In this document: in pieces, positions 2,673 through 24,964 of the stretch
Numbering within the stretch: position 1 is the stretch's first letter
Layout: every line of letters begins with the position of its first letter
Translations under genes and position numbers: made by a program
Notes under the pieces: generated by a model
The model's database searches: none
The model's input: the letters and a program-made list of their open reading frames with translations, nothing else
Told to the model about the DNA's origin: nothing
Assembly: GCA_963663765.2 (NCBI GenBank)
Contig: CAXXUA010000010.1
Span: forward strand, 1-25,277
DNA length: 25,277 bases
Source of the DNA: Candidatus Poribacteria bacterium
Lineage (GTDB): Bacteria > Poribacteria > WGA-4E > WGA-3G
Direction of reading: 5' to 3'

Positions 2673-3600
2673 CTATGACTGCGAAAGAATATCCGTTGCA
2701 GTACGAATGTCTCGACGAATCTGCTGCACTAACGCATGTATATTTGGGAACTCGCGTTCACTACGAATTTTCTCAACAAAAAATATCTCAATGGTTTCGC
2801 CATAAACAACTTCATCAAAATCAAATAGATGGCATTCAACCAAAAACTTTGACCCGTTAAAGGTGGGACGTGTACCGATATTCAGCACACCTCTTAACAT
2901 TCGTCCAGATAATTTTGCATGAACAGCATAAACACCATTGGGTGGACACAGTTGTTCACCGGGTTCAATATTTGCTGTCGGAAAACCGAGCTGCCGACCC
3001 GCGCCTATCGCCATGCACAATGTTACCACTCAAGGAATATGTGCGTCCGAGCAGTTGTGAGGCTAAACCAAGGTCGCCGCGCGCAATCGTTTCACGAATG
3101 CGTGTACTATGTACTGGCAACCCATTTAACTCTGTCGGCGGCACAACCGTCACGCCGAATCCAGTTTGCTTGCCGAGTGCCTTCAAGAGTTCTGCGTTGC
3201 CTTGCCGGTCTTTCCCAAATTGGCAAGCATAACCGACTACCACATGTTTCGCACGGCACTTGCCAAGTAATATGCGGTTCACAAACGTCTCTGGACACAT
3301 AGAAGCGATTCGTTCATTAAAGTTGACAAAAATAGAGATATCCATACCGAGGTGTTCAAGGATTTCTATACGTTTGGGCAAACACATCAGAACAGGAGGG
3401 CAATTTTCAGGTGAAAGAAACGCAAGGGGATGCGGATAAAAACCGAACAAGATAGTTGACAGTTGATCAGCATCGGCACGCGCACGTACTGCACCAAGCA
3501 CCTCTTGATGACCAACATGCAATCCATCAAATACGCCAAACGTAACAACCGAGTCTTGTGTAAAAACAGGGATAGAGTCCAAGTTAAAATAGGTTTGCAA
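2673..3600 (-). CDS. ribF: Bifunctional riboflavin kinase / FAD synthetase, split by a +1 frameshift at about 2998-3000
   Basis: N-part has GVFDGLHVGH and HSTRIRE; C-part has GRQLGFPTAN, GVLNIGTRPT and VECHLFDF. Removing one G from CGC GGG TCG restores GDRRGRQLGFPTAN. Confidence 0.92.
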
Positions 3601-3678
3601 AATTCTTCTCCACGAGTCTATGTCCCATGAACATACACCTTAGTTACATTTCATATTATCTGAACCGAGGTTTACGCA

Positions 3679-4659
3679 TCAACCATTTTCATCAATGTAC
3701 CGTTGTGCGCTGGCTACAATCATCTTTATAGCAGCTGCAGTCGGTAGTTCAATGCGACATCCGGAGGCACGTTCATGTCCGCCACCATTATACTCAGCAG
3801 CCAAGGCAGCGACATCAACTTTACCCGCACTCCGCAAACTCACTTTTGTATTGCCATCCGCCAACTCACAAACACATATAGCCACATCAACACCGCCAAT
3901 CGCTTGCACCTGATTCACAAACCCCTCAACATCATCCAAGGTCGTATCGGTATCATTCAACATTGCCTGTGTGACGCGAACCCAACCGATCTTACCATCC
4001 GGTGTCAGTTCTAATGTCCGCAGTGTTTGTCCTAACAAATACATCTTACCCATCAACACCTGTTCAAACACGTGTCGGTAGACTTCATCAGGAGCAAAGT
4101 TACCAATCTCTATCAGTTCTGCTGCGATACGATGTGTCTCAGGTGTCGCATTGCTAAACCGAAAACAACCTGTATCAAACATCACGCCGGTATATAAACA
4201 CAACGCACCTGCTTCGTCAATCGCAATGTCCGTAGACCTAATAAACTTGTATATAATTTCTGCAGTTGACGAAGCAGTAGTTTCAATTATGTTGTAATCC
4301 CCAAAAGCCTCCGCAGTGCTATGATGGTCAATGTTGACAACAGCGTGCATTGGTATCAACCGTTTCCGCAGAAAGTTACCAATCCGTTCTCTCGAACTTG
4401 CATCCAAAATGATGAGTACATCCGTGCAATAATCACTCGCTGCTTCCGCATTTTCAATGTTTTCCCAATACGGTAGAAACTGGTATTTTTCTGGCACTGG
4501 ATCCGTATTGAAAATTCTGACTGTTTTCCCTAACTTTTCCAGAAACAGGAACAGTGCCAACTCAGAACCGATAGCATCACCATCCGGATTAACGTGTGTT
4601 GAGATTGCAAACGTCTGATATTGTCGAAACAAAGCGAGGAGGGAACGAAAACTTTTCAT
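3679..4659 (-). CDS. nrnA: DHH/DHHA1 family bifunctional oligoribonuclease / pAp phosphatase
   Basis: HVNPDGDAIGS, IDHH, DTGCF, SLRS and GGGHERASG motifs; usual position after rbfA. Confidence 0.92.
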   Translation of the reverse strand: MKSFRSLLALFRQYQTFAISTHVNPDGDAIGSELALFLFLEKLGKTVRIFNTDPVPEKYQFLPYWENIENAEAASDYCTDVLIILDASSRERIGNFLRKRLIPMHAVVNIDHHSTAEAFGDYNIIETTASSTAEIIYKFIRSTDIAIDEAGALCLYTGVMFDTGCFRFSNATPETHRIAAELIEIGNFAPDEVYRHVFEQVLMGKMYLLGQTLRTLELTPDGKIGWVRVTQAMLNDTDTTLDDVEGFVNQVQAIGGVDVAICVCELADGNTKVSLRSAGKVDVAALAAEYNGGGHERASGCRIELPTAAAIKMIVASAQRYIDENG

Positions 4660-5045
4660 ATCAGTAAATCGTTTTCGGTTGATTTTTGCGAATCATCATC
4701 TTCATCACCTATTTCTTTTAAAAGTCCATCTATTTTCATCAGATGGTCAACAGAATCGTCTAAACTAAATCGGAGTTCTGGAGAATATCTGAGTACTAAA
4801 CGTCGGCTGATCTCACGTCGAATAAACCCGGCAGCACTCTTGAGTCCGGCAAGTGTTTCTTCCTTTTGCTCAAACTCACCGATAACACTGACTTTCACAT
4901 CCACATATTTCAGATCCGCGGATACATCCACATGTGTGACGGTGCAAAACGCAACACGCGGGTCCTTCACAACGCGATGAATAATCTCACTCAACTCTCT
5001 CTGAACAAGTGCTCCTACCCGGTCTTGTCTTCTATTTTCTATCAT
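4656..5045 (-). CDS. rbfA: 30S ribosome-binding factor A
   Basis: RRQDRVG..RELS, KDPRV, VSADL, AGFIRREI..LRYSPELRF..DDS. Confidence 0.96.
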   Translation of the reverse strand: MIENRRQDRVGALVQRELSEIIHRVVKDPRVAFCTVTHVDVSADLKYVDVKVSVIGEFEQKEETLAGLKSAAGFIRREISRRLVLRYSPELRFSLDDSVDHLMKIDGLLKEIGDEDDDSQKSTENDLLI

Positions 5046-5595: not shown

Positions 5596-5896
5596 GGTAG
5601 GAGCGACCTCCCGGTCGCGATTTTCTCAGGAAACGTGTATATTTGATAGAACTGTATAAGCCTGTGTCTACCGTTGTGTGCGTAAGTCCTGGTATAAACA
5701 TATCGTCCCTACGGGACTAAAGATGATGTACTATGACGTTTTTCTATAAACATATCGTCCCTACGGGACTGAAGATGATGTAGTATGACGTTTTCTATAC
5801 AGGACTTACGCAGTTTTCATGTTCCAATCAAGAATTAAGACAAAAACGATGTAATTTTCAGCATTTTTTTCGTTTCCGGCGCGCTTACAAAGCACG
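5596..5896. repeat. Mosaic: REP D (5596-5634), TGCGTAAGTCCTG, two REP C units, a CAGGACTTACGCA segment and a REP A unit
   Basis: Direct matches to families found elsewhere in the window. Confidence 0.8.
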
Positions 5897-6035
5897 TAGG
5901 TGTCAACTTAAGAAAATATTGTTTGCATTTTCTCTTGTGGGAGGGGTTTTCAACCCCGATTTGAGCGGAAATGCACTAAAAAATCGGGGTTGAAAACCCC
6001 TCCCACAAGAGGTAAAATCCTTAAGTTGACACCTA
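5897..6035. mobile_element. MITE/REPIN-like element: TA-GGTGTCAACTTAAG terminal inverted repeats enclosing an inverted pair of REP family B
   Basis: TAGGTGTCAACTTAAG...CTTAAGTTGACACCTA; internal CTCTTGTGGGAGGGGTTTTCAACCCCGATTT and its reverse complement. Confidence 0.75.
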
Positions 6036-6058
6036 TGGGTGCGTGCTTACAAAGCACA

Positions 6059-6208
6059 TAGGTGTCAACTTAAGAAAATATTGTTTGCATTTTTTCTTGT
6101 GGGAGGGGTTTTCAACCCCGATTTGAGCGGAAATGCACTAAAAAATCGGGGTTGAAAACCCCTCCCACAAGAGAATATGCCAACACTTTTTTCTTAAGTT
6201 GACACCTA
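6059..6208. mobile_element. Second copy of the same MITE/REPIN-like element
   Basis: Same termini and internal REP B doublet as 5897-6035. Confidence 0.75.
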
Positions 6209-6391: not shown

Positions 6392-6664
6392 TTATACCTC
6401 TATGGTCTCTTGGAAGTCCTGAAAAGAGGTTGCAAGTGAAGCATTAAGGTTCACCTGCTTGAGTTGGTTGATGTCAGCAATAGCCTCAAGTCTGGGGATG
6501 AGGACATTGACATCTGCATGCGGGAAACGTGCTTTGATGACTGCCAATGTATTTTCAATACTCGTTTGGCGCGCCCCTTGTTCAATGCCTTGTTCAATGC
6601 CTTGTTCAATGCCTCGTTCAATGCCTCGTTGGATCACATGTTCGTAAAAAGGTGAATCTTGCAT
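6392..6664 (-). CDS. Predicted internally initiated small isoform (RpnS-like, 90 aa, MQDSPFYEH...)
   Basis: In-frame GGAGG-caatc-ATG inside the gene, matching the known RpnL/RpnS organisation. Confidence 0.6.
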   Translation of the reverse strand: MQDSPFYEHVIQRGIERGIEQGIEQGIEQGARQTSIENTLAVIKARFPHADVNVLIPRLEAIADINQLKQVNLNASLATSFQDFQETIEV

Positions 6665-7303
6665 GATTGCCTCCAGTAAAGGGTCCTGAAAAAATTCTTT
6701 GGGATGTGCTAAACTCCCGAAAAGCGAGAGTGCAAATAAAAGGGTAGCCCGCATCTCTCTGTCAATATCAACTGTCTGGATCGTCTGAATACACTTCTCA
6801 ACCCAGCTTTGAGGAGTCATGTCTGCGGGCGGTTTCATCAAAGCCGTGAAAGGCAATAACCCTACAGCTTCGGGGTCCAAGAACGCCTCACCCTCCAACT
6901 CATAGATACGGATGACGTTATACTGAAACCACACGCCGCCACGTTGTGCGTTTCCATACCTATAGAAACCAGGGTCCCTTTGTCCCGCGGGTGGACGGAA
7001 ATACAACACCGTTGAATAAACATTCTTCTCATGTTCAAGGGCAAGAAAACTCGAATACGCCAGCATTCGTAAAGGCATCGGTTTATGGGTGCTGTCGTCG
7101 GTTTGTGCCTCTATATGTAGGATCGCCTCCTCATCGGGCAGGCGCACATGAAACGTCATATCACTATGATGCATCCGAACCGTGGCTTGCTCTGTGCTCA
7201 ACCGTTCCACGACTTCCACCTCTGACGTTTTCAGTGCTAACACTGCCAAGTCCTGTGGGAACTCCCCAGTAACGTGTTTGAAGATTTCATCATAATACGG
7301 CAT
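6392..7303 (-). CDS. Rpn family (recombination-promoting nuclease / putative transposase, PD-(D/E)xK fold) protein, copy 1
   Basis: YDEIFK start, HSDMTF..ILHIEAQT (D..ExQ), MPLRMLAY, LLPF, SPFYEH, GIEQG repeats and a helical tail. ATG 7303 chosen because a promoter lies directly upstream. Confidence 0.85.
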   Translation of the reverse strand: MPYYDEIFKHVTGEFPQDLAVLALKTSEVEVVERLSTEQATVRMHHSDMTFHVRLPDEEAILHIEAQTDDSTHKPMPLRMLAYSSFLALEHEKNVYSTVLYFRPPAGQRDPGFYRYGNAQRGGVWFQYNVIRIYELEGEAFLDPEAVGLLPFTALMKPPADMTPQSWVEKCIQTIQTVDIDREMRATLLFALSLFGSLAHPKEFFQDPLLEAIMQDSPFYEHVIQRGIERGIEQGIEQGIEQGARQTSIENTLAVIKARFPHADVNVLIPRLEAIADINQLKQVNLNASLATSFQDFQETIEV

Positions 7304-7309
7304 ATAATT

Positions 7310-7339
7310 ATTATACATGCATTTATGAAGAAATGTCAA
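7310..7339 (-). promoter_or_regulatory. sigma70 promoter TTGACA-N18-TATAAT ending 6 nt before the ATG (leaderless); also present in copy 2
   Basis: Minus strand reads TTGACA tttcttcataaatgcatg TATAAT aattat ATG, with no Shine-Dalgarno. Confidence 0.75.
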
Positions 7340-7440
7340 GATGTTTATAAGTATCACGAGTTGTGCTAAATAACTATATGTTAATCATTGTTTCACATAA
7401 GCATGGCGTTTTGCAGGTGTCCTTCATAGTTTGAAACGAT

Positions 7441-8026: not shown

Positions 8027-8949
8027 TTATACGTCTATGGTCTCTTGGAAGTCCTGAAAAGAGGTTGCAAGTGAAGCATTAAGGTTCACCTGCTTGAGTT
8101 GGTTGATGTCAGCAATAGCCTCAAGTCTGGGGATGAGGACATTGACATCTGCATGCGGGAAACGTGCTTTGATGACTGCCAATGTATTTTCAATACTCGT
8201 TTGGCGCGCCCCTTGTTCAATGCCTTGTTCAATGCCTTGTTCAATGCCTTGTTCAATGCCTCGTTCAATGCCTCGTTGGATCACATGTTCGTAAAAAGGT
8301 GAATCTTGCATGATTGCCTCCAGTAAAGGGTCCTGAAAAAATTCTTTGGGATGTGCTAAACTCCCGAAAAGCGAGAGTGCAAATAAAAGGGTAGCCCGCA
8401 TCTCTCTGTCAATATCAACTGTCTGGATCGTCTGAATACACTTCTCAACCCAGCTTTGAGGAGTCATGTCTGCGGGCGGTTTCATCAAAGCCGTGAAAGG
8501 CAATAACCCTACAGTTTCGGGGTCCAAGAACGCCTCACCCTCCAACTCATAGATACGGATGACGTTATACTGAAACCACACGCCGCCACGTTGTGCGTTT
8601 CCATACCTATAGAAACCAGGGTCCCTTTGTCCCGCGGGTGGACGGAAATACAACACCGTTGAATAAACATTCTTCTCATGTTCAAGGGCAAGAAAACTCG
8701 AATACGCCAGCATTCGTAAAGGCATCGGTTTATGGATGCTGTCGTCGGTTTGTGCCTCTATATGTAGGATCGCCTCCTCATCGGGCAGGCGCACATGAAA
8801 CGTCATATCACTATGATGCATCCGAACCGTGGCTTGCTCTGTGCTCAACCGTTCCACGACTTCCACCTCTGATGTTTTCAGTGCTAACACTGCCAAGTCC
8901 TGTGGGAACTCCCCAGTAACGTGTTGAAGATTTCATCATAATACGGCAT
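8027..8949 (-). pseudogene. Rpn family protein copy 2 with a -1 frameshift near codon 9 (8924-8925); the internal small ORF 8027..8311 is intact
   Basis: GTGTTGAAGA here versus GTGTTTGAAGA in copy 1. Otherwise ~99% identical, with 4 GIEQ units versus 3. Confidence 0.75.
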
Positions 8950-9089
8950 ATAATTATTATACATGCATTTATGAAGAAATGTCAAGATGTTTATAAGTAT
9001 CGGGTGTGTAAAGTTTTTGTAGAAACCCTGATATTATAGTGGATTTTAGAATTATTTTTACACTTTCAGGTGTAGGAGGGAACTCCTCT

Positions 9090-9433
9090 TTTGTGGGAGG
9101 GGTTTTCAACCCCGATTTGAGAGGAAAAGTGCATAAAATCGGGGTTGCAAACCCCTCCCACAAGAGGTGAAAATCCTTAAGTTGTCATTTCTCTTGTGGG
9201 AGGGGTTTTCAACTCCGATTTTAGAGGAAAAGTGCATAAAATCGGGGTTGCAAACCCCTCCCACAAGAGGTGAAAATCCTTAAATTGACGCTTATGGGGT
9301 GCGCTTACAAAGCACGCCTGCAGTTGGGGGTGGGGATGGCGCGCTTACAAAGCACGCCTGCAGTTTTTGGGAGTATGGAGCGCGCTTACAAAGCACGCCT
9401 GCAGTTGGGGGCGCGCTTACAAAGCACGCCTAC
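9090..9433. repeat. Two inverted doublets of REP B with degenerate CTTAAGTTG ends, followed by a REP A cluster next to the infB 3' end
   Basis: Direct inspection. Confidence 0.85.
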
Positions 9434-12105: not shown

Positions 12106-13309
12106 TAGGTGTCAACTTAAGGATTCTGATCTCTTGTGGGAGGGGTTTTCAACCCCGATTTTATGTTCATTTCCACTCAAATCGGGGTTACAAACCCCTC
12201 CCACAAGAGAATATGCCAACAATATTTTCTTAAGTTGACACCTATCAAATGGGGGTTACAAACCCCTCCCACAAGAGAATATGCCAACAATATTTTCTTA
12301 AGTTGACACCTATCAAATGGGGGTTACAAACCCCTCCCACAAGAGAAAATGACAACAATATTTTCTTAAGTTGAGACCTATCAAATGGGGGTTACAAACC
12401 CCTCCCACAAGAGAATATGCCAACACATTTTTCTTAAGTTGACACCTATCAAATGGGGGTTACAAACCCCTCCCACAAGAGAATATGCCAACACATTTTT
12501 CTTAAGTTGACACCTATCAAATGGGGGTTACAAACCCCTCCCACAAGAGAATATGCCAACACATTTTTCTTAAGTTGACACCTATCAAATCGGTGTTACA
12601 AACCCCTCCCACAAGAGAAGTTGACACCTATCAAATCGGGGTTACAAACCCCTCCCACAAGAGAATATGCCAACAATATTTTCTTAAGTTGACACCTATC
12701 AAATGGGGGTTACAAACCCCTCCCACAAGAGAATATGCCAACAATATTTTCTTAAGTTTACACCTATCAAATCGGGGTTACAAACCCCTCCCACAAGAGA
12801 ATATACCAACAATATTTTCTTAAGTTTACACCTATCAAATCGGGGTTACAAACCCCTCCTACAAGAGAATATGCCAACTCAAATCGGGGTTACAAACCCC
12901 TCCTACAAGAGAATATGCCAACTCAAATCGGGGTTACAAACCCCTCCCACAAGAGAATATGCCAACAATATTTTCTTAAGTTGACACCTATCGGGGTTAC
13001 AAACCCCTCCTACAAGAGAATATGCCAACTCAAATCGGGGTTACAAACCCCTCCCACAAGAGAATATGCCAACTCAAATCGGGGTTACAAACCCCTCCTA
13101 CAAGAGAAGTTGACACCTATCAAATCGGGGTTACAAACCCCTCCTACAAGAGAAGTTGACACCTATCAAATCGGGGTTACAAACCCCTCCCACAAGAGAA
13201 TATGCCAACTCAAATCGGGGTTACAAACCCCTCCTACAAGAGAATATGCCAACTCAAATCGGGGTTACAAACCCCTCCTACAAGAGAATATGCCAACAAT
13301 ATTTTCTTA
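12106..13309. repeat. One full MITE/REPIN-like element (12106-12244) extended into a tandem array of about 20 REP B copies built from 68-, 46- and 44-bp units
   Basis: Core CAAAT(C/G)GGGGTTACAAACCCCTCC(C/T)ACAAGAGA, with optional ATATGCCAAC, AATATTTTCTT and AAGTTGACACCTAT modules. Confidence 0.92.
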
Positions 13310-14750: not shown

Positions 14751-15218
14751 TTACCACACGAGTTGGATATATCCTTTACATACTCGCGCAATTTCAATAT
14801 GGACGGGTTCACCCGATGTTTGTTGCAAAGTTACACACCCATCAACGGCATTTATTATTTCTCCTTTAACTTCGTGCAGTTGTCCGTTGGATGCGGTAGC
14901 CTCAATTAGAACGGTTCTTCCTATATTTCGCTGAAAATCAGGTTCTGTTGTCAAAGGACGATCAATTCCTGGTGAAGCAATTTCCAGTTGTTTGAATTCT
15001 GTTAGTATCTGGTGTACTTCTAATATTGGACGAACCGTTTGATTCACTGCTTGACAATCTGATACGGAAAGACCGCCTTGTTTGTGTATTAGCAGACGTA
15101 ATATCTGATTTTTTCGGTTTTTTGCTATTTCTACAGCGACCAGTTCAAAACCCTCTGTATTAAGGAGAGGCGTTAACATATCTGCAACAGTTGCTTCAAT
15201 ACCATCTGCCATTTTCAT
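14751..15218 (-). CDS. rimP: Ribosome maturation factor RimP
   Basis: GFELVAVE, GGLSVSDC, LEIASPGIDRPL; first gene of the operon. Confidence 0.95.
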   Translation of the reverse strand: MKMADGIEATVADMLTPLLNTEGFELVAVEIAKNRKNQILRLLIHKQGGLSVSDCQAVNQTVRPILEVHQILTEFKQLEIASPGIDRPLTTEPDFQRNIGRTVLIEATASNGQLHEVKGEIINAVDGCVTLQQTSGEPVHIEIARVCKGYIQLVW

Positions 15219-15548: not shown

Positions 15549-16470
15549 GGGTGTGTAAAGTTTTTGCACAGAGGTACTAACTTTTGTTCTCTTTAGTCCC
15601 GTAGGGACGCAATGTTTATAGAAAGACGTTATCACCCTCTCTTGAGTTCCATAGGAACGACATAGAAGAATAAACATATCGTCCCTACCAAATCAACGCC
15701 AAATGCGCCAAATCAACGGTATGAATGCCATTTAGGCATTCCCCGTATGGCATTTGTCGGGACTAAAGAGTATGTGCTATGGCGTATTTCTATAAACATA
15801 TCGTCCCTACCAAATCAACGCCAAATGCGCCAAATCAACGGTATGAATGCCATATGGAGATTAATAAATAAATTAGGTGATTCTATCTAACCCACCCTGG
15901 TAGGCATGTTGGCACATCAAGTCCCAATAGCGCGCTTACAAAGCACGCCTACCATCGGGGGCGCGCTTACAAAGCACCAAATCAACGGTATGGGTGTGTA
16001 AAGTTTTTGCACAGAGGTACTAACTTTTGTTCTCTTTAGTCCCGTAGGGACGCAATGTTTATAGATAGGTGTAATCACCCTCTCTTGAGTTCCGTAGGAA
16101 CGACATAGAAGAATAAACATATCGTCCCTACGGGACTAAAGAACTGGGAAGGGCACTTGTTTTCTATAAACATATCGTCCCTACGGGACTAAAGAACTGG
16201 GAAGGGCACTTGTTTTCTATAAACATATCGTCCCTACGGGACTAAAGAACTGGGAAGGGCACTTGTTTTCTATAAACATATCGTCCCTACGGGACTAAAG
16301 AACTGGGAAGGGCACTTGTTTTCTATAAACATATCGTCCCTACGGGACTAAAGAGGATGTACTATGGCGTTTTTCTATAAACATATCGTCCCTACGGGAC
16401 TAAAGAGGATGTACTATGGCGTTTTTCTATAAACATATCGTCCCTACGGGACTGAAGAGGATGTACTATG
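15549..16470. repeat. Repeat mosaic: ~140-bp direct repeat (15549-15688 and 15992-16131), nested micro-elements, a REP A pair and a REP C array of about 7 units of 52-53 bp
   Basis: GGGTGTGTAAAGTTTTTG starts (also at 9002); AAACATATCGTCCCTACGGGACTAAAGA units with two linker types. Confidence 0.88.
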
Positions 16471-16678
16471 ACATAAATAAAAATAACTTCAGGTTTTCGT
16501 TGAAGTATTTTTATTTATCATAGCGTCTAATTTGACGATAGAATCTGACAGAATAATTTATATGCACAATCTGGCAGAATGTGCTACAACTGCCCGCACA
16601 ATCTGGAAGAATGTCTATTATTGGCGAAGGTATTGATTTCTATCATAACTTGCTTGACGTTAGGGAACTGAGGACATC

Positions 16679-16705
16679 GTAGGGGCGGGGAGACCCCGCC
16701 CCTAC
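16679..16705. repeat. REP family E palindrome GTAGGGGCGGGGAGACCCCGCCCCTAC
   Basis: Perfect 12-bp stem starting with GTAG; single copy in the window. Confidence 0.65.
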
Positions 16706-16756
16706 GGCACAGTAACCAAAATTTTACACATCCCTTCGGTGCTTGACAGGAACAAT

Positions 16757-17181
16757 TGCAGGCGTGCTTTGTAAGCGCGCCATCCCCGCCCTCCCCTGCA
16801 GGCGTGCCTCGCCCTCCCCTGCAGGCGTGCTTTGTAAGCGCGCTCCGTTCTCCCAAAAACTGCAGGCGTGCTTTGTCCGCGCGCCATCCCCGCCCTCCCC
16901 TGCAGGCGTGCTTACAAAGCACGCCATCCCCGCCCTCCCCTGCAGGCGTGCTTTGTAAGCACGCTCCGTTCTCCCAAAAACTGCAGTCGTGCTTTGTAAG
17001 CGCGCCGTTTTTTTTTTGGCAGTCGTGTTTTGTAAGCGCGCTCCGTTCTCCCAAACTGTATGCGTGCTATGTAAGCGCGCCGATTTTATGGTAGGCGCGC
17101 TTACAAAGCACGCCTGCAGGTGCGGGGCAGGTGGGGGGCGCGCTTACAAAGCACGCCTGCAGGTGAGGGCGGGGATGGCGA
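16757..17181. repeat. REP family A cluster; orientation flips at about 17090
   Basis: About 9 GCAGGCGTGCTTTGTAAGCGCGC-like units, then 2 reverse units. Confidence 0.88.
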
Positions 17182-17238
17182 TTCTGAACACCAAATACAC
17201 AATACAAAGACATATAACAAACATAAACATAGTATGTG

Positions 17239-17786
17239 TTGACAAAATCCAATAAATATGATATAAAAATAGAACTGAACAGCATTCGCTTATCTACAAT
17301 AACAACACATAATAAAATGTCAAAAAATACAAATATCTATATATTATATTTGACAAAGACTTTTAATGATGCTATAATACTTAACTATAAGCATTTATTA
17401 GCACTATAAGAAGCAAATAAATCGCGAAAATATGGATTTATAACATATATAGTCAGATAAAGTAAATTTATTGAATATTTACTTGACAAAGACATGTAAT
17501 GATGTTATAATAAGTAAATAATTTAGTCAATACGGCAATTTATATTGACAAAATTTTGAACTTCTGTTTTAATGTGGAAAGAAATCATATATAGTGGTAA
17601 AATATAAGAAATTGGCAATAATATTTGACAAAGACTTATAATGGTGTTAAAATACGTAAATAATAGGTATTTACAACCGATTTGTTTATTTTGTAACGAA
17701 CGCGAATATATATACGTAATATATGTCATATAAATATATAGAATTGTAACTTTAACTTGACATAGACGTAATATGTGTTATAAAAT
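17239..17786 (+). promoter_or_regulatory. Array of six tandem near-consensus sigma70 promoters
   Basis: TTGACA at 17239, 17350, 17483, 17545, 17625 and 17757. Each has a TG-n extended -10 at a 17-nt spacer (16 nt for the last): TATAAA, TATAAT, TATAAT, TTTAAT, TAAAAT, TATAAA. Confidence 0.85.
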
Positions 17787-17796
17787 ATGTATAACC

Positions 17797-17983
17797 CGCA
17801 CTCAGAACTGAAAAGGCAAAACGGTGGTGAGTGCTTACGGAACTGAAAGTTCCAAAACTAAAAGGTTAGTAGAATAGATTCTTTCCCTGAATCTGTTCTT
17901 TATATTTGATAAGTAATTGAATTTACAATAACTTTGAATAGGTATTTCTCGGGTTGTCCGGTTATTAGGTGCTGAACACCCGA
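17797..17983 (+). other. Structured 5' leader, candidate cis-regulatory RNA
   Basis: Stems GCACTCA/TGAGTGC, GGAAC/GTTCC, AGAATAGATTC/GAATCTGTTCT with a T-rich tail, and TCGGGT/ACCCGA. Confidence 0.4.
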
Positions 17984-18030
17984 AAGGTTAATTAATAATT
18001 AGTAAGATTTTATTTAGAGGAGAACAAATA

Positions 18031-21000
18031 ATGAACCTGTCAAATAAATTGACATTTCACATAGTTTTTGCTGTGTTGTTTGCTGTTGGGATAATTTTTG
18101 CCCCAGCCGTGATGGCAGCGGAAAACGGTCCGACAGCGACCATCGTTATTGACGACTCACCAGCGATAGGTCCTGGTCCTGATGGTGATATAGACATGGT
18201 AGGTGACAACACTTCAGCAGATACAACGGATGGCGATAATGTATTGCTGACAAATACAGCTCGTACGGAACTTGCAGCGCCTGGTGAGACAGGTAATTTT
18301 CGTGTGAAGGTCACATTTAGTGAACCTGTTTTTGCAGATGCTGATCAGACCGATGTAGATGCAGCAACACTTGCAGCGGGTGATCTTGGTACTGGTACAG
18401 ATGAGTGGGGTATCGTGGCTGGCGCAGTTGTCGGTGGTACAGAGTTATCTGGTATAAGCATCTCAAGTGTTAGCCGAGTTGACACAAGGACTGCAGCGCA
18501 AATTGAAGCTGAGGATCCTGCAACTGAAGTATGGTCCAAGACCGAATTTCTGGTAACACTTTCAGTTTCTCATGATGATACACCGTTAGTATTGACCCTT
18601 ACACTCAACGCTGATGCTGTTTTCGGTGTTGGCACGGCTTTTCGAATTGTAAACGGAGTTCCACAGGCAGCAGTTCCTGGGATAGGTAGCCAAGAAGCAA
18701 GTAAGACTTTTACTATCATTCCGAAGACACTGTTAAGGCCGAATGTAGCAAAGTCTAAAACAAAGATTGGACTTGATGAAGATGTTAGGGTTACGTTAAC
18801 GTTTTCTACTGAACCCGCAGATGCGGATAAACCCAGACGTGCAGATCCCATTGCTGACCCCGCTGTTACAAGTAACTTTACAATTACAAATGGATTTCTT
18901 GTTGCCGATGACCCTGACACCACAGATGTTGATGAAGGATTACTGGTAAACTCCGATAAGACAGAATATACATTTGTCATTGTTCCTCAAGGTGGTATTG
19001 GTGACTTCTTTGATATTGAATTAGAAGCGGTAGCTGGAGCTCCTTTTATCCTATCGGCAGTAATTAAAGTAGACAGTCGTCCACTATCACAACGGATTGA
19101 TATCACAACAGATTCTAATGCAGGTGATCGAAAAGGTGGCGTGGCGTTTACAGTCAAAATTGAATATACTGTCGCACCATCAGCTAATCTTACCGCCGCT
19201 GGTGTTACAGTTACGGATGGTACAAAAGGAACGTTCAACAGACAATCATCAACTGTATACACTTTGGTTATTGATCCTGACGATCCTGCACCGGGCGCAA
19301 CGGGTAGAGTAACAGTCTCCGTTGGACAGTATAGTCAGAATTTCTCTATACCTGGTGCTGATGTAGATACTGAGACTGAGACTGAGACTGATCCAGGCGA
19401 TGTAACGTCTCGTGTCACAAGCGATTCAATTGAAATTCCAAAAAATAGTTTTGTCGTTGTTGTCAGAGATGCTACACTGCCGTTGATGGATGCCGATGGT
19501 GTCATAACGAAACCAGTCCCCGATGGACAGGTATTCCGTACAGGTGTTAATAAGGTAGCATGGTCAGCACCGGATGCAGATAACGTTATGCCGGACCTTA
19601 GAACACTTTTTGATAGAAACGCACCTGGTGGTGGTGGTGCACTCATTGTTGAAGATGCTGCAGGAGACAGTGGTACTATCGGTGTCGGAAGAGTCGGTAT
19701 CAGTGAAATCATGTGGGGTATTGATGAAGGCAAACTCGGTGATGAAGCCGGTGAAAAAGCTTCACAGTGGATTGAACTACACAATATTTCAAGTACTGAT
19801 GTTACTGTTACATTGACCTCATTGACCGGGCGTGAAATTACTGAAGAAAGTGCTATCACAGGGAGTCTCTCAGCACCTACAATAGATGTTGTGACGAACT
19901 TCTTTGACAATAGACCGGGGTTCGGAGCATGGGATGTACCGGGAGCAAACGGTAACAGTCTTACTGGTGGAAATTTCACCTCAATGTCACGTATTCTACC
20001 GGATAAGAAGTCTGCTTATGCCGATGCCGATGGTGCACGTTATAGCAATCGGGATGGACGAAACGACGGTCATTGGTCTACATCCGATACACCGTATATA
20101 CGTAGGTCAACGATTTATAACGATGTAACTGTGATTTATGAATATCATGGTACACCCGGACAAGTCAATTCGTTTAGACCCGAAACGCAACCGCATTTAA
20201 GAGATAGTCGTACAAGTGTTTCAAGCAATAAGGTTATCATTAACGAGGTTGCAAACCGTGCTAATGCACAAAAACAGTATGAGTGGATTGAACTTCGCAA
20301 TGTCTCCAGTAGTACAATTAATCTACGGAAATATAGAATTTCTAAGGTTACCAGTAATTCAAGTGACCAACTTCTAATTGATTTTCCGAACGATGATAAA
20401 ACGAAAATTGGAGCAGGACAAGTGCTGCTTTTAGTTGCATCTAATCCAGCAACAGATTTAGAACATCCGCTTCTTCCTGGACGCAATGTTGATAAGACGG
20501 AAGCAGAACATCTACAACATGAATGGAACAGTCCAGTTCGGTATAAGGTCATATCTTTCCAAAATAACGGTCTACCAGACGATGGTAAGTTCGTGTTGAT
20601 CGTGCGCAGACCCGACAATGCAGCTAAAAATGACCATGCTGAACTCGGTGCTAATGATCTGGATAAAATTGAAGATATTGCTGGATGGGACGACAATCTG
20701 TCCAAATCCAACTATTCTAATTCAGTTTCATCCACCGAGTTATGGCCACTGAAAGCGTTTAAGGTACCTTTAACGGACAAAAACAGTTTAAAAGTAAACA
20801 CTGTTCATCGTCGTCAGCATGTCACGACAAACGATGGTCGTAGTGGTGTTGGTGGAAATGGAAATCGCACCGGAGATGGTGATGCAGCATTCCGCGATGT
20901 TGGTTTCACAGGTGTTGGTTATAAACGTAGAATTACCAGTGGTAATATGTTTGGCGGAACACCTGGGTATGATAACGGCACACAGAAGTCATCTGGTAGT

Positions 21001-22095
21001 GCTGTCACAAGTCCAGTTTATATAAGTGAATTTATGTATGCTGATGGACCGGGTGGTGCATTACCACAGTGGATTGAACTACGTAATCCATCAAAAACTG
21101 TTGGTGTTAACTTACATAACTGGCGGCTGACCATCATCAATCATGATAGTATTGATGCTGCAGGTACAGAATGGCAAGGTAAACCTGATGCAAGTATCCT
21201 GCTTAATAATTTGAAACTTGATCCGAATTCTACTGTGCTGATTACCTCAGCCAGAGCGACTCGGAGTCAATTATACATGCCATCAGCTGATGTCTTCGTA
21301 TTGTATCCAACTCATAGGTCAACCTTCGGTATGACAGGTCCTGGCGATGATATTTTCAATCTCTATGGTTTTACACTCACACTACACACCAAAGGCAACG
21401 AAGCAAGTAGTAAGTGGGAGTTAGTTGACGAAATCAGCAACCTCGCTGCACGTAGAACAGCAGAACGAGGTGAGAGAACTGATACCGAACGTTATGATCC
21501 GCCACGATGGGCATGGCCTGATGCACACACCGCTGAGGGAGATCGTATCTCGCTTGCTCGTGCGAATGACGTTATGAATGATGGAAGTGGATCATTCACC
21601 AGTGGAATTTCTGACGGCACAGAACCAGGTGGTTGGATACTTTCCAACGCTGATGGTAGAACCGAAAGAATTGATCTCGTCTACTATGGAAACAAAGACG
21701 ATATTAGCACACCAGGTCAAACAGTGAAATCACCTTTGCCTGTAAACTTGTCCTCATTCCGTCCAGCATTGGAAAACGGCGAAGTCGTTATCCGTTGGAC
21801 AACCGAATCCGAACTTGACAACGCTGGATTTAATGTCTATCGTAGTGAAATTCGTGATGGTGAATTTGAGCAGGTCAACGCAGAGTTGATTCAAGGTGCT
21901 GGCACAACCGGTGAACGTAATACTTACAAATGGGTTGATGCTTCGGCGAAACCCGATGCTGTATATTACTACCAAATAGAAGATGTATCTTTCGCAGGTG
22001 AGCGTCAAATGCTTGCTACTACCAAGTTGAAAGGTTTGCTCTCGGCCAAGAACAAACTGACAACGACTTGGGGCGATTTGAAATTACAAGACTAA
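18031..22095 (+). CDS. Large secreted/surface protein: signal peptide, acidic beta-rich Ig-like region, three lamin-tail-like domains, C-terminal Ig-like domain and KLTTTWGDLK tail
   Basis: GAGGAG RBS; hydrophobic N-terminus ending VMA-A. ISEIMW..QWIELHN, INEVAN..EWIELRN and ISEFMY..QWIELRN; LPVNLSSF..WTTESELDNAGFNVYRS. Confidence 0.85.
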   Translation: MNLSNKLTFHIVFAVLFAVGIIFAPAVMAAENGPTATIVIDDSPAIGPGPDGDIDMVGDNTSADTTDGDNVLLTNTARTELAAPGETGNFRVKVTFSEPVFADADQTDVDAATLAAGDLGTGTDEWGIVAGAVVGGTELSGISISSVSRVDTRTAAQIEAEDPATEVWSKTEFLVTLSVSHDDTPLVLTLTLNADAVFGVGTAFRIVNGVPQAAVPGIGSQEASKTFTIIPKTLLRPNVAKSKTKIGLDEDVRVTLTFSTEPADADKPRRADPIADPAVTSNFTITNGFLVADDPDTTDVDEGLLVNSDKTEYTFVIVPQGGIGDFFDIELEAVAGAPFILSAVIKVDSRPLSQRIDITTDSNAGDRKGGVAFTVKIEYTVAPSANLTAAGVTVTDGTKGTFNRQSSTVYTLVIDPDDPAPGATGRVTVSVGQYSQNFSIPGADVDTETETETDPGDVTSRVTSDSIEIPKNSFVVVVRDATLPLMDADGVITKPVPDGQVFRTGVNKVAWSAPDADNVMPDLRTLFDRNAPGGGGALIVEDAAGDSGTIGVGRVGISEIMWGIDEGKLGDEAGEKASQWIELHNISSTDVTVTLTSLTGREITEESAITGSLSAPTIDVVTNFFDNRPGFGAWDVPGANGNSLTGGNFTSMSRILPDKKSAYADADGARYSNRDGRNDGHWSTSDTPYIRRSTIYNDVTVIYEYHGTPGQVNSFRPETQPHLRDSRTSVSSNKVIINEVANRANAQKQYEWIELRNVSSSTINLRKYRISKVTSNSSDQLLIDFPNDDKTKIGAGQVLLLVASNPATDLEHPLLPGRNVDKTEAEHLQHEWNSPVRYKVISFQNNGLPDDGKFVLIVRRPDNAAKNDHAELGANDLDKIEDIAGWDDNLSKSNYSNSVSSTELWPLKAFKVPLTDKNSLKVNTVHRRQHVTTNDGRSGVGGNGNRTGDGDAAFRDVGFTGVGYKRRITSGNMFGGTPGYDNGTQKSSGSAVTSPVYISEFMYADGPGGALPQWIELRNPSKTVGVNLHNWRLTIINHDSIDAAGTEWQGKPDASILLNNLKLDPNSTVLITSARATRSQLYMPSADVFVLYPTHRSTFGMTGPGDDIFNLYGFTLTLHTKGNEASSKWELVDEISNLAARRTAERGERTDTERYDPPRWAWPDAHTAEGDRISLARANDVMNDGSGSFTSGISDGTEPGGWILSNADGRTERIDLVYYGNKDDISTPGQTVKSPLPVNLSSFRPALENGEVVIRWTTESELDNAGFNVYRSEIRDGEFEQVNAELIQGAGTTGERNTYKWVDASAKPDAVYYYQIEDVSFAGERQMLATTKLKGLLSAKNKLTTTWGDLKLQD

Positions 22096-22184: not shown

Positions 22185-22248
22185 GCGGGTGTGTCCGCAC
22201 TCACCCGCAGTCGTGTCGGCCCTAAACTGCAGGCGTGCTTTGTCCGCT

Positions 22249-22895
22249 CTTTAGTCCCGTAGGGACGATATGTTTATAGAAAACCAGTGCCTCCAAGGTC
22301 TTTAGTCCCGTAGGGACGATATGTTTATAGATAAAGCATTTCCTCCAAGGTCTTTAGTCCCGTAGGGACGATATGTTTATAGAAAACCAGTGCCTCCAAG
22401 GTCTTTAGTCCCGTAGGGACGCTATGTTTATAGAAAAGCATTTCCTCCAAGGTCTTTAGTCCCGTAGGGACGATATGTTTATAGATAAAGCATTTCCTCC
22501 AAGGTCTTTAGTCCCGTAGGGACGATATGTTTATAGATAAAGCATTTCCTCCAAGGTCTTTAGTCCCGTAGGGACGCTATGTTTATAGAAAAGCATTTCC
22601 TCCAAGGTCTTTAGTCCCGTAGGGACGCTATGTTTATAGAAAACCATTTCCTCCAAGGTCTTTAGTCCCGTAGGGACGCTATGTTTATAGATAAAGCATT
22701 TCCTCCAAGGTCTTTAGTCCCGTAGGGACGATATGTTTATAGAATAGGAACAGCATATAAGAATAAACATATCGTCCCTACGGGACTAAAGAGGGTGGGT
22801 GGGGTTCTTGTTTTCTATAAACATAGCGTCCCTACGGGACTAAAGAGGTTTTTTCACCGATTTCTATAAACATATCGTCCCTACGGGACTAAAGA
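22249..22895. repeat. REP family C array: 10 tandem 51-52 bp units followed by 3 inverted units
   Basis: TCTTTAGTCCCGTAGGGACG(A/C)TATGTTTATAGA plus a near-constant linker ending CCTCCAAGG. Confidence 0.92.
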
Positions 22896-22944
22896 CACAG
22901 ACAAGATAGTATCCCATAAAAAATAACGGCATAGCAAATAAATC

Positions 22945-23131
22945 GGCGCGCTAACAAAGCACGCATGCAGTTTTTTGGAGTATGGGGCGCGCGGACGAAG
23001 CACGCCTGCAGTTGATGGTGGGGATGGCGCGCTTACAAAGCACGCCTGCAGTGGGGGTGGGGATGGCGCGCGGACAAAGCACGCCTGCAGGTGAGGGCGG
23101 GGATGGCGCGCGGACATAGCACGCTTGCAGT
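22945..23131. repeat. REP family A cluster (5 units)
   Basis: GGCGCGC(TTACAA/GGACAA)AGCACGCCTGCAG variants. Confidence 0.85.
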
Positions 23132-23156
23132 TGGGTACATCCCAAACAGAAACACT

Positions 23157-23244: not shown

Positions 23245-24492
23245 ATGAAACCGTTCTTACTTATTCTAACCACACTCACACTACTTGCAACGAATGTGCA
23301 ATCCGAAGAGATCACTTATAGCGAACATATCGCACCCATCCTACAGAAACAGTGCCAATCCTGCCACCGACAAGGTGAGGTTGCGCCATTTTCGTTGACC
23401 GACTACCGTGAAGCGAAAGCGTGGGCAACTGAAATCGCAGAATACACTAAAGCCAAGCTAATGCCGCCTTGGAAACCCGCACACGGCTACGGCGAATTCA
23501 AAAATGAAAGACGACTCACAGACAAAGAAATCAAAATGATTAGCAAGTGGGCAGCAGCAGGTGCACCTGCAGGTGATCTCTCAAAGACACCCCCCAACCC
23601 GACATTCCATCAAGGATGGATACTCGGTGAACCTGACCACCTCGTTGAAATGCCTGTTGAATACGAGATTGAACCGGAAGGTGAAGACGAATACCGACAC
23701 TTCATTATACCCACCAACTTTGATACAGATATGTATGTCCAAGCCGTTGATGTGCAACCGGGTAATCGCAAGACCGTGCATCATGTCATCGTCTATTTGG
23801 ATACTAAAGGTCAGGCGCGGAAACGTGCTGCAAGAGACCCGAAACCCGGCTATGTCACACAAGGCACAGGTCCCGGTATTGAAGTTGCGGGTACACTTGG
23901 GGGATGGGCGCCCGGTGTTACGCCGTCTGTGCTGCCAAATGGTGTCGGGTATCTACTGCCAAAAGGCGCGGACATTGTGCTACAGGTGCATTACTACCGC
24001 ACTGGACACACCGAACGCGACCAATCCAAAGTTGCACTCTACTTCTCAAAGACCGAGAAGACGACTCCCTTGCATATTGCATCCATGATCAACCAAAAAT
24101 TCGTAATCCCCGCAGGTAAAGCAAAACATGCTGTCAGAACACATAAACAGGTGAAGCAAGACAGTTATCTATTAGCTACGATGCCGCACATGCATCTCCT
24201 CGGCCGCGACATGCATATCACTGCAAAACCACCAACGGGTGACCCGATTGACCTTATCTGGATACAGGATTGGGATTTCAACTGGCAGGACATCTATCAT
24301 TACAACAAACCGATTTTCCTACCAGCAGGCACGCGTGTCTCCCTCGTTGCGCACTTCGACAACTCCGCAGAGAACCCCGCCAACCCGCATGACCCACCTG
24401 TCCCTGTCGGTTGGGGTGACAAAACCACAGATGAAATGTGTATCGGATTCTTGTATCTCGTTGATGCAAACAAATTTCAACCTGGGGAATAG
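23245..24492 (+). CDS. Exported protein with an N-terminal c-type heme motif and a copper type II ascorbate-dependent monooxygenase-like (PHM/PNGase F fold) domain
   Basis: Signal peptide; CQSCH..MPPW; VHHVIV, LQVHY, PHMHLLG, WDFNWQ and DEMC match the PHM CuH (HH..H) and CuM (HxH..M) ligand pattern. Confidence 0.8.
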   Translation: MKPFLLILTTLTLLATNVQSEEITYSEHIAPILQKQCQSCHRQGEVAPFSLTDYREAKAWATEIAEYTKAKLMPPWKPAHGYGEFKNERRLTDKEIKMISKWAAAGAPAGDLSKTPPNPTFHQGWILGEPDHLVEMPVEYEIEPEGEDEYRHFIIPTNFDTDMYVQAVDVQPGNRKTVHHVIVYLDTKGQARKRAARDPKPGYVTQGTGPGIEVAGTLGGWAPGVTPSVLPNGVGYLLPKGADIVLQVHYYRTGHTERDQSKVALYFSKTEKTTPLHIASMINQKFVIPAGKAKHAVRTHKQVKQDSYLLATMPHMHLLGRDMHITAKPPTGDPIDLIWIQDWDFNWQDIYHYNKPIFLPAGTRVSLVAHFDNSAENPANPHDPPVPVGWGDKTTDEMCIGFLYLVDANKFQPGE

Positions 24493-24515: not shown

Positions 24516-24964
24516 GTAGGCGGGGAATGCCATACGCGCATTCATACCGTTGATTTGGTGCTTTGTAAGCGCGCTGCACACTCAACTGCGGGGCGCGCTT
24601 ACAAAGCACGCCTGCAGTTGAGTGTGCGGCGTGGTTTGTAAGCGCGCCCCCCTACGTTCCCCTGACTGCAGGCGTGGTTTGTAAGCGCGCCCCCCTACGT
24701 TCCCCTGACTGCAGGCGTGCTTTGTAAGCGCGCTCCCTACGTTCCCCCTGACTGCAGGCGTGCTTTGTAAGCGCGCTCCCTACGTTCCCCTGACTGCAGG
24801 CGTGCTTTGTAAGCGCGCTCCCTACGTTCCCCTGACTGCAGGCGTGCTTTGTAAGCGCGCCTCGCCCTCAACTGCAGGCGTGCTTTGTAAGCCGCGCCCT
24901 CGCCCTCAACTGCAGGCGTGCTTTGTAAGCGCGCTCCGTGACTGTGCGTGCTTTGTAAGCACGT
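24516..24964. repeat. REP family A cluster directly upstream of the RAYT gene, with ~42-bp tandem units; the first unit carries a 36-bp micro-element (24522-24557)
   Basis: CTGCAGGCGTGCTTTGTAAGCGCGCTCCCTACGTTCCCCTGA repeated. Confidence 0.9.

Follow-up and report, generated by a model that had tools for sequence, protein, structure and literature searches.

In the early region of phage T7, three strong co-oriented promoters for E. coli RNA polymerase, A1, A2 and A3 (annotated at 498, 626 and 750), have starts 128 and 124 nt apart and are followed by a non-coding leader of about 175 nt and then by gene 0.3 at 925; all three are active promoters. In rRNA operons, two strong co-oriented promoters, P1 and P2, lie about 100-120 nt apart before one highly expressed unit, are distinctly regulated and give a stable RNA as product. 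S-layer mRNAs typically have a long structured 5' leader. Five promoters, reportedly described by Adachi and co-workers in 1989, precede the cwp S-layer operon of Brevibacillus brevis 47, and different ones are used in different growth phases (PMC4906056). A literature search on tandem promoters of S-layer genes returned nothing relevant. A stretch of E. coli DNA, finally, counts as a promoter island when PlatProm predicts 8 or more starts, on either strand, in each 100-bp window along 300 bp or more (PMC3661553). Such islands are tied to horizontally acquired genes and are nearly silent (Panyukov and Ozoline 2013; PMC3661553), and PMC7054387 argues that an excess of promoters can silence a gene.

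The locus described here lies on a contig (C10, bases 1-25277) of a Candidatus Poribacteria genome of 6.35 Mb in 15 contigs; the whole of this 25,277-nt stretch of DNA is referred to below as the window. Genes rimP, nusA, infB, rbfA and further genes occupy its minus strand. Between the end of rimP at 15218 and the start of a plus-strand gene at 18031 there is a 2.8-kb gap in three parts, the second of which, 17239-17786, carries on its plus strand six TTGACA boxes, each followed after 16-18 nt by a -10-like hexamer. Sites were scored as matches to the -35 and -10 hexamers out of 12, with a spacer of 16-18 nt. The features of the region are as follows.

To about 17170: first part of the gap, REP-like arrays
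17239-17786: second part of the gap, 548-nt tract, 22.4% GC
Up to the ATG at 18031: third part of the gap, 244-nt stretch, 33.6% GC
880-1286, 5693-6173, 9087-9411, 12177-13297, 15560-17170, 22248-23135 and 24628-24937: REP-like arrays of the window
17239-17267, plus strand: P0, TTGACA, 17-nt spacer, TATAAA, with TG at 17259-60; not of the repeated core type
17350-17378, plus strand: P1, core type W, TTGACA, 17-nt spacer, TGcTATAAT; 12/12 plus TG
17483-17511, plus strand: P2, core type W, TTGACA, 17-nt spacer, TGtTATAAT; 12/12 plus TG
17545-17573, plus strand: P2b, TTGACA, 17-nt spacer, TGtTTTAAT, lacking the A at -10 position 2
17575-17603, plus strand: "seventh" extended -10, TGGTAAAAT, at 17595-17603, with a weak -35 (TGGAAA); 9/12
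17625-17653, plus strand: P3, core type W, TTGACA, 17-nt spacer, TGtTAAAAT; 11/12 plus TG
17757-17786, plus strand: P4, proximal promoter, a relative of the W core; predicted start near 17793
17793-18030, plus strand: predicted 238-nt leader from P4
17798-17834, 17839-17853, 17871-17899 and about 17949-17985, plus strand: leader hairpins
17864-17899, plus strand: hairpin S3, sequence-invariant and terminator-like, an 11-bp stem followed by a T-rich tail
18016-18022, plus strand: Shine-Dalgarno-like AGAGGAG, 8 nt before the ATG
18031-22095, plus strand: gene for a 1,354-aa protein with a signal-peptide-like N-terminus and two lamin-tail domains

The sequence of 17151-18600 is unchanged in contigs from two public DNA runs (X1 and X3), which may derive from the window's own sample, and the stretch 17200-19200 is present in five public DNA runs; no RNA run is listed for it. 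In two further runs (X4 and X5), long contigs that match the gene perfectly begin only at 17648 and 17823, with little or no cover of the promoter array (17210-17822); this does not count as a finding, though it could mean strain differences in the array.

The window as a whole is rich in repeats. REP-like hairpin repeats of at least three families, whose periods are about 40, 44-68 and 49-53 nt, are strung out in long tandem arrays, and these occupy nearly all of its intergenic spaces, including 1.7 kb between infB and nusA, that is, inside what is normally one operon. Two minus-strand ORFs of 321 aa (6392-7357) and 289 aa (8027-8896), neither with a Pfam match, have one 12-nt tandem repeat in common, present in 4.6 and 5.6 copies respectively, and look like paralogs or a duplicated element. 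A tRNA scan of the window found none.

The six boxes of the original prediction were all recovered in their single orientation; P2b starts at 17545, where about 17546 had been implied. Proper spacing of the -10 hexamers holds for all six, and so does the TG extension, with one restriction: P4 can be read with an 18-nt spacer, TAAAAT and no TG, or with a 16-nt spacer, TATAAA and TG, and is extended in the second reading only. The final base of the -10 is A rather than T in P0 and in the 16-nt reading of P4, and position 2 of the -10 is intact in five of the six sites, the exception being P2b. This site, 62 nt past P2, is the weakest of the six and doubtful as a promoter. The additional extended -10 that had been predicted at 17595-17603 is present as well, behind its poor -35. 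The tract is as AT-rich and free of REP elements as had been claimed, the REP-like arrays stopping near 17170.

Start-to-start distances from P0 to P4 are 111, 133, 62, 80 and 132 nt, and the four related units P1, P2, P3 and P4 recur at 133, 142 and 132 nt, matching the predicted period of 132-142 bp. The promoters are distinct and do not overlap; judged against the size of the RNA polymerase footprint, only the 62-nt gap between P2 and P2b is shorter than the footprint. All of the sites face one downstream unit, and the plus strand from 17239 to 17870 has no terminator-like site, the first being the leader hairpin at 17871-17899. The spacing of the related units resembles that of the T7 promoters, as does the position of a leader (238 nt here) between the last promoter and the gene. 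Unlike the T7 array, which comprises three promoters in a phage early region, the array of the window has six sites, four of them homologous copies, before a chromosomal gene of an uncultured bacterium; the T7 promoters are known to be active, whereas the window sites are known as sequences. rRNA operons have two promoters in tandem, against six here.

Clustering of this kind is not expected by chance. In 5,000 dinucleotide-preserving shuffles of 17200-17800, sites scoring at least 11/12 occurred at a mean of 0.09 and a maximum of 2, none of the 5,000 reaching 3, compared to six observed. The TTGACA hexamer itself is present six times on the plus strand, where shuffles yield 0.26 copies; the minus strand has it once. 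Over the whole genome (6.35 Mb, both strands) there are 672 sites of at least 11/12, and the array is their densest cluster, no other cluster exceeding 3. Perfect 12/12 sites number 98 genome-wide, against 7 for a reversed-pattern control, which indicates that the consensus is genuinely in use in this genome; 11/12 sites number 574 against 213. Among 3,827 ORFs, which are crude calls, the gene at 18031 ranks first for sites of at least 11/12 in the 1-kb upstream region (3,356 ORFs have none, 457 have one, 12 have two, one has three, and one has six).

P1, P2, P3 and P4 align as one homologous unit with 44-nt cores. Across the 44 columns, identity among the cores of P1-P3 is 80-84%, and between P4 and these three it is 59-70%. 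Conservation extends beyond the hexamers to the spacer, with 13-14 of 17 positions common to P1-P3, and to the first transcribed bases. Columns outside the core are 29-51% identical, and segments between cores resemble one another no better than shuffled sequences do (z -0.7 to 1.9). The homology of the four units and the divergence of the DNA between them agree with the original prediction. Such identity of the cores amid flanks at shuffle level suggests selection on each core. The units look like the product either of an old duplication of which only the cores were kept, or of short cores copied in, and would be constrained in either case. The core type of the window was found only here: a degenerate form of it, searched without mismatches in 40 genomes of the genus, matched only the three window sites, matches with 2-3 mismatches in the same genomes were single scattered promoters, and a metagenome scan with a shorter form of the core gave 18 single matches and no arrays. 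Conservation can therefore be demonstrated for the design, not for these very units.

This restriction to one lineage is among the points in favour of a sparser account, in which only the proximal P4, perhaps with one more site, drives the gene, and the upstream copies, be they relics of a recent duplication or neutral resemblances arising in AT-rich sequence, contribute little. Two sites, P2b and that at 17575-17603, clearly fall short of the rest, most of the multi-copy leaders in two other Poribacteria genomes have one promoter only, about 180 nt upstream, and very high expression is not indicated by codon bias, itself a weak signal in this genome. Neutral decay, however, would affect cores and flanks alike, which is not what the contrast between the two shows; chance in AT-rich DNA yields 0.09 sites rather than six, and not their strict co-orientation; and relatives retain four to six sites with conserved hexamers. 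We therefore regard this account as unlikely.

The relatives deserve closer description. Conservation of the boxes elsewhere had been proposed as a check on the array, and it turned out that tandem promoters are retained before matching or paralogous genes. Upstream of 36 Poribacteria copies of the leader (see below) there are 61 same-strand sites scoring at least 11/12 and one on the opposite strand, in a count where two loci with two leaders each were entered twice. Four to six co-oriented sites of at least 10/12 with conserved promoter elements were found at ten related loci (L086, L099, L067, L070, L075, L105, L022, L062, L053 and L072), and three at a locus on contig C3 of the same genome (L027). 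Promoter subtypes recur at these related loci, mostly in the same order, each with its own conserved spacer and downstream bases. In an alignment of 7 species, conservation falls into islands that match the elements of four promoters in a row, and the DNA between promoters is variable, rich in indels and takes up REP insertions. The leaders before paralogs on contig C5 of the same genome and in G001, G012 and G018 form a second class, whose distal promoter is of a "Y" type that includes P4 of the window; the Y-type promoter is single or a tandem pair (103 nt apart in G001 and 109 nt in G018) and is followed by a proximal promoter.

The locus of genome G022 is taken as orthologous on three grounds. 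Its protein gives a full-length match of 40%, the same leader-hairpin variant lies directly upstream of its gene, and a gene 85% identical to the 415-aa gene of the window lies directly downstream. This ortholog also has six sites, of other sequence types than those of the window, and it follows that promoter number is kept and the sequences are not. The sequence comparisons point to a conserved design, namely many promoters, a structured leader and a secreted-protein gene, in which the four-copy core of the window is apparently a lineage-specific replacement. Synteny with RimP or NusA was not found in the available stretches of G022 and of G021. A side observation concerns L070, in one closed relative. 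There, what comes after the battery and the leader (2501) is a short stretch from the start of a lamin-tail-domain gene, apparently degenerate, and then, about 1 kb on, an ortholog (83% identical) of the 415-aa gene at 3514-4704, so that the large gene seems to have been largely deleted and its control region kept.

Conservation that reaches past the hexamers, into spacers and first transcribed bases both in the window and in each promoter subtype of the relatives, could also mean that the 44-nt cores serve mainly to bind a regulator, i.e. an operator array laid over promoters, in which the number of units sets cooperativity rather than output. By eye, however, the cores have no dyad symmetry or known operator motif. 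No regulator gene adjoins them, the neighbours being rimP-nusA-infB and a cytochrome-like gene, and conservation of the spacers can be explained equally by common descent or by promoter kinetics. An operator array could coexist with a promoter battery; as the main function of the cores we consider it improbable.

The resemblance to the promoter islands of E. coli also has to be weighed. Like these (Panyukov and Ozoline 2013; also Bykov et al. 2020), the tract combines AT-rich DNA with an excess of promoter-like sites before a gene. It might act as a silencer or polymerase sink, holding polymerase and a nucleoid protein, H-NS in the case of the E. coli islands, and keeping the gene low. The low GC content of the tract, its many look-alikes of polymerase-binding sites, the poor transcription of promoter islands as described in PMC3661553 and PMC7054387, and the unremarkable codon bias (again, a weak signal in this genome) are all consistent with this. 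The density, in contrast, is far from that by which islands are defined: a simple consensus scan, which is not PlatProm, finds about 10 sites of at least 9/12 in the 600 bp of 17200-17800, both strands included. The promoters of the window are discrete, well spaced, co-oriented and near-consensus, and their elements and overall design are conserved between species. Nor does the gene resemble a recent import, since its family is native to the clade: of 24 genomes sampled from the genus, 23 have it, and relatives such as G022 have matching loci. A silencing role is thus very improbable.

The reading that we prefer, and hold to be rather probable, is that the stretch is a working tandem sigma-70 promoter battery. 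Within it, P1, P2, P3 and P4 are probably active, and probably P0 too. Between P4 and the gene lies the predicted leader, which is unusually stable as a fold (minimum free energy z -2.78; 0 of 200 shuffles as stable). Its S3 hairpin is common to leaders in 22 of 40 genomes of the genus, with at most one mismatch. The leader motif mostly occurs in 1-2 copies per genome, two genomes having 27 and 15. The 17-letter core of S3 was found in 87 stretches of the genome_contigs collection, of which roughly half are from Poribacteria; the other half or so are what chance would give for a 17-mer there. A four-helix structure was drawn by hand on 35 leaders and then scored on the same sequences, which favours it in the control: 90.7% of cells are paired, a figure that drops to 22-47% once the partners are shifted by 1-3 columns. 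Compensatory changes occur in 13 of 30 pairs in these 35 leaders, ten of them in the last helix. RNAalifold, run on the raw MAFFT alignment of 40 leaders, recovered only two helices. We read this DNA as encoding an RNA element because of its fold stability and compensatory pairing. Rfam gave no family at gathering score in the window and none at E<=1 in 17150-18100, and a multi-copy leader returned chance-level rows only. By these comparisons, the leader represents an undescribed structured RNA family of Poribacteria, with members in the window and at loci L037-L110, L027 and L022.

Half of the 36 leader copies (18) are followed within 600 nt by an ORF of at least 80 aa preceded by a Shine-Dalgarno sequence, and a crude hydropathy test rates the N-terminus of 15 of these 18 ORFs as signal-peptide-like or membrane-like. 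Of the 18 copies lacking an ORF, nine are no more than 450 nt from where the available DNA stops. Further copies in the same genome may be mentioned for their arrangement: the one at C8:35114-35152 (minus strand) is apparently an orphan with no obvious gene behind it, and on C3 a tandem pair of complete leader modules (1819-1858 and 2361-2400) precedes a paralog with three promoter-like sites. Two other ideas were dropped. A specialised NusG paralog acting on the leader was abandoned upon finding a single NusG match in the genome, and a link to the promoter of a DUF1670 element was rejected, the 11 DUF1670 matches, on C2, C3 (near 572 and 609 kb) and C13, all lying away from leader copies.

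The position of the S3 hairpin bears on the suggestion, made in the original prediction, that the array produces small RNAs. If each unit yielded one small RNA rather than mRNA, the regular spacing of 132-142 nt would find a ready explanation, and the terminator-like hairpin at 17871-17899 could end a set of nested short transcripts. A terminator-like site is absent, however, within and between the units; RNA of the array (17385-17792) is not unusually structured (z -1.73, 5 of 100 shuffles folding as well); the DNA between cores is not conserved from unit to unit; and no Rfam match was obtained at E<=1. The suggestion was not borne out, and of the explanations considered we give it the least credence.

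The gene behind the leader encodes a protein for which the predicted surface or secreted location is fitting: a signal-peptide-like N-terminus, which starts MNLSNKLTFHIVFAVLF and runs to AVMA, is combined with the lamin-tail domains. A C-terminal domain of about 130 aa is shared by 10 loci of this genome and by many paralogs in the genus, the protein being one of 10-12 paralogs. For this domain, Pfam gave only DUF6134 at E 0.018, below the cut-off, NCBIfam gave nothing, and a comparison with PDB sequences gave nothing meaningful; Atlas feature matches to clusters of type-IX sorting domains (0.77) are a lead only. In its likeness of codon usage to a reference set (27 genes for ribosomal proteins, elongation factors and RpoA), the gene falls at the 56th percentile, which is uninformative here, as the signal is weak and the set itself exceeds the mean by only about 1.3 sd. 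Literature linking Poribacteria with an S-layer or lamin tail names, in the parts available, no protein forming an abundant envelope lattice. The adjacent 415-aa gene (23245-24492) has weak matches to cytochrome c and to both copper type II monooxygenase domains, all below Pfam cut-offs, and is 83-85% conserved in two relatives, compared to 40% for the lamin-tail-domain gene next to it.

Several of these signals, i.e. the leader of 238 nt, its stability (z -2.78) and the signal-peptide-like N-terminus, are those of S-layer-type expression. As in the B. brevis cwp operon, promoters are stacked before the gene of a secreted envelope protein. Unlike those of B. brevis, the promoters of the window are all near-consensus and give no hint of a division between growth phases. 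The protein, moreover, is one of 10-12 paralogs, and a role in an S-layer lattice is putative. That the array had been called unusual is tempered by the three strong tandem promoters of T7 and by the five of the B. brevis S-layer operon; within this genome, no other locus has more than three sites.

In a working battery, all promoters would fire in one direction into one unit, comprising a structured leader of about 240 nt and then the lamin-tail-domain protein gene. Because the spacing of the main units, 111-142 nt, exceeds the footprint of one polymerase, several polymerases could load at once, and transcripts begun at upstream promoters would run on across those further down, so that one mRNA would have a nested set of 5' ends. 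What would probably be gained is a high or robust rate of initiation. Since the spacer and the first transcribed bases are conserved besides the hexamers, the battery could also allow separate regulatory inputs. Firing of the sites, the number that fire and a high output are what we infer from the arrangement. At promoters with full consensus, escape of the polymerase can become the limiting step, and promoters in tandem can interfere by occlusion, so that more sites need not mean more RNA. The four related cores probably arose by local duplication of one promoter type within this lineage, the duplicated cores replacing an older series of five promoters that is still kept at the matching locus of relatives.

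It is tempting to speculate further, and we offer the following as a possible though doubtful extension. Selection might maintain the number of promoters and not their sequence, with initiation permanently saturated by many promoters and the real control exerted at the conserved leader RNA; the batteries all lead into one and the same invariant, terminator-like hairpin. Such control could tentatively be pictured as attenuation, processing or stabilisation, and might be shared by the secreted-protein genes of Poribacteria, a two-stage arrangement that would be unreported in bacteria. At the matching gene, relatives have a series of five promoter types, in whose place the window has four copies of another core and two further sites.

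Stacks of promoters as such are not new, since T7 early genes and S-layer genes have them too. What would be new is a number of promoters conserved while their sequences turn over, together with an undescribed leader. If active, the array would, among natural stacks of near-consensus sigma-70 promoters that serve one cellular gene, be one of the largest, and it would supply well-defined parts for studying how tandem strong promoters add up or interfere. The matching loci of relatives may be regarded as a natural experiment on selection for promoter number, and the leader hairpin as a new, testable RNA element tied to secreted-protein genes. To our knowledge, Poribacteria are a phylum without a cultured member and without described promoter biology. 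In this organism, the gene at 18031 may be the one at which initiation is strongest, and its product, a variable secreted lamin-tail-domain protein, may dominate the surface that the cell shows to its surroundings or host.
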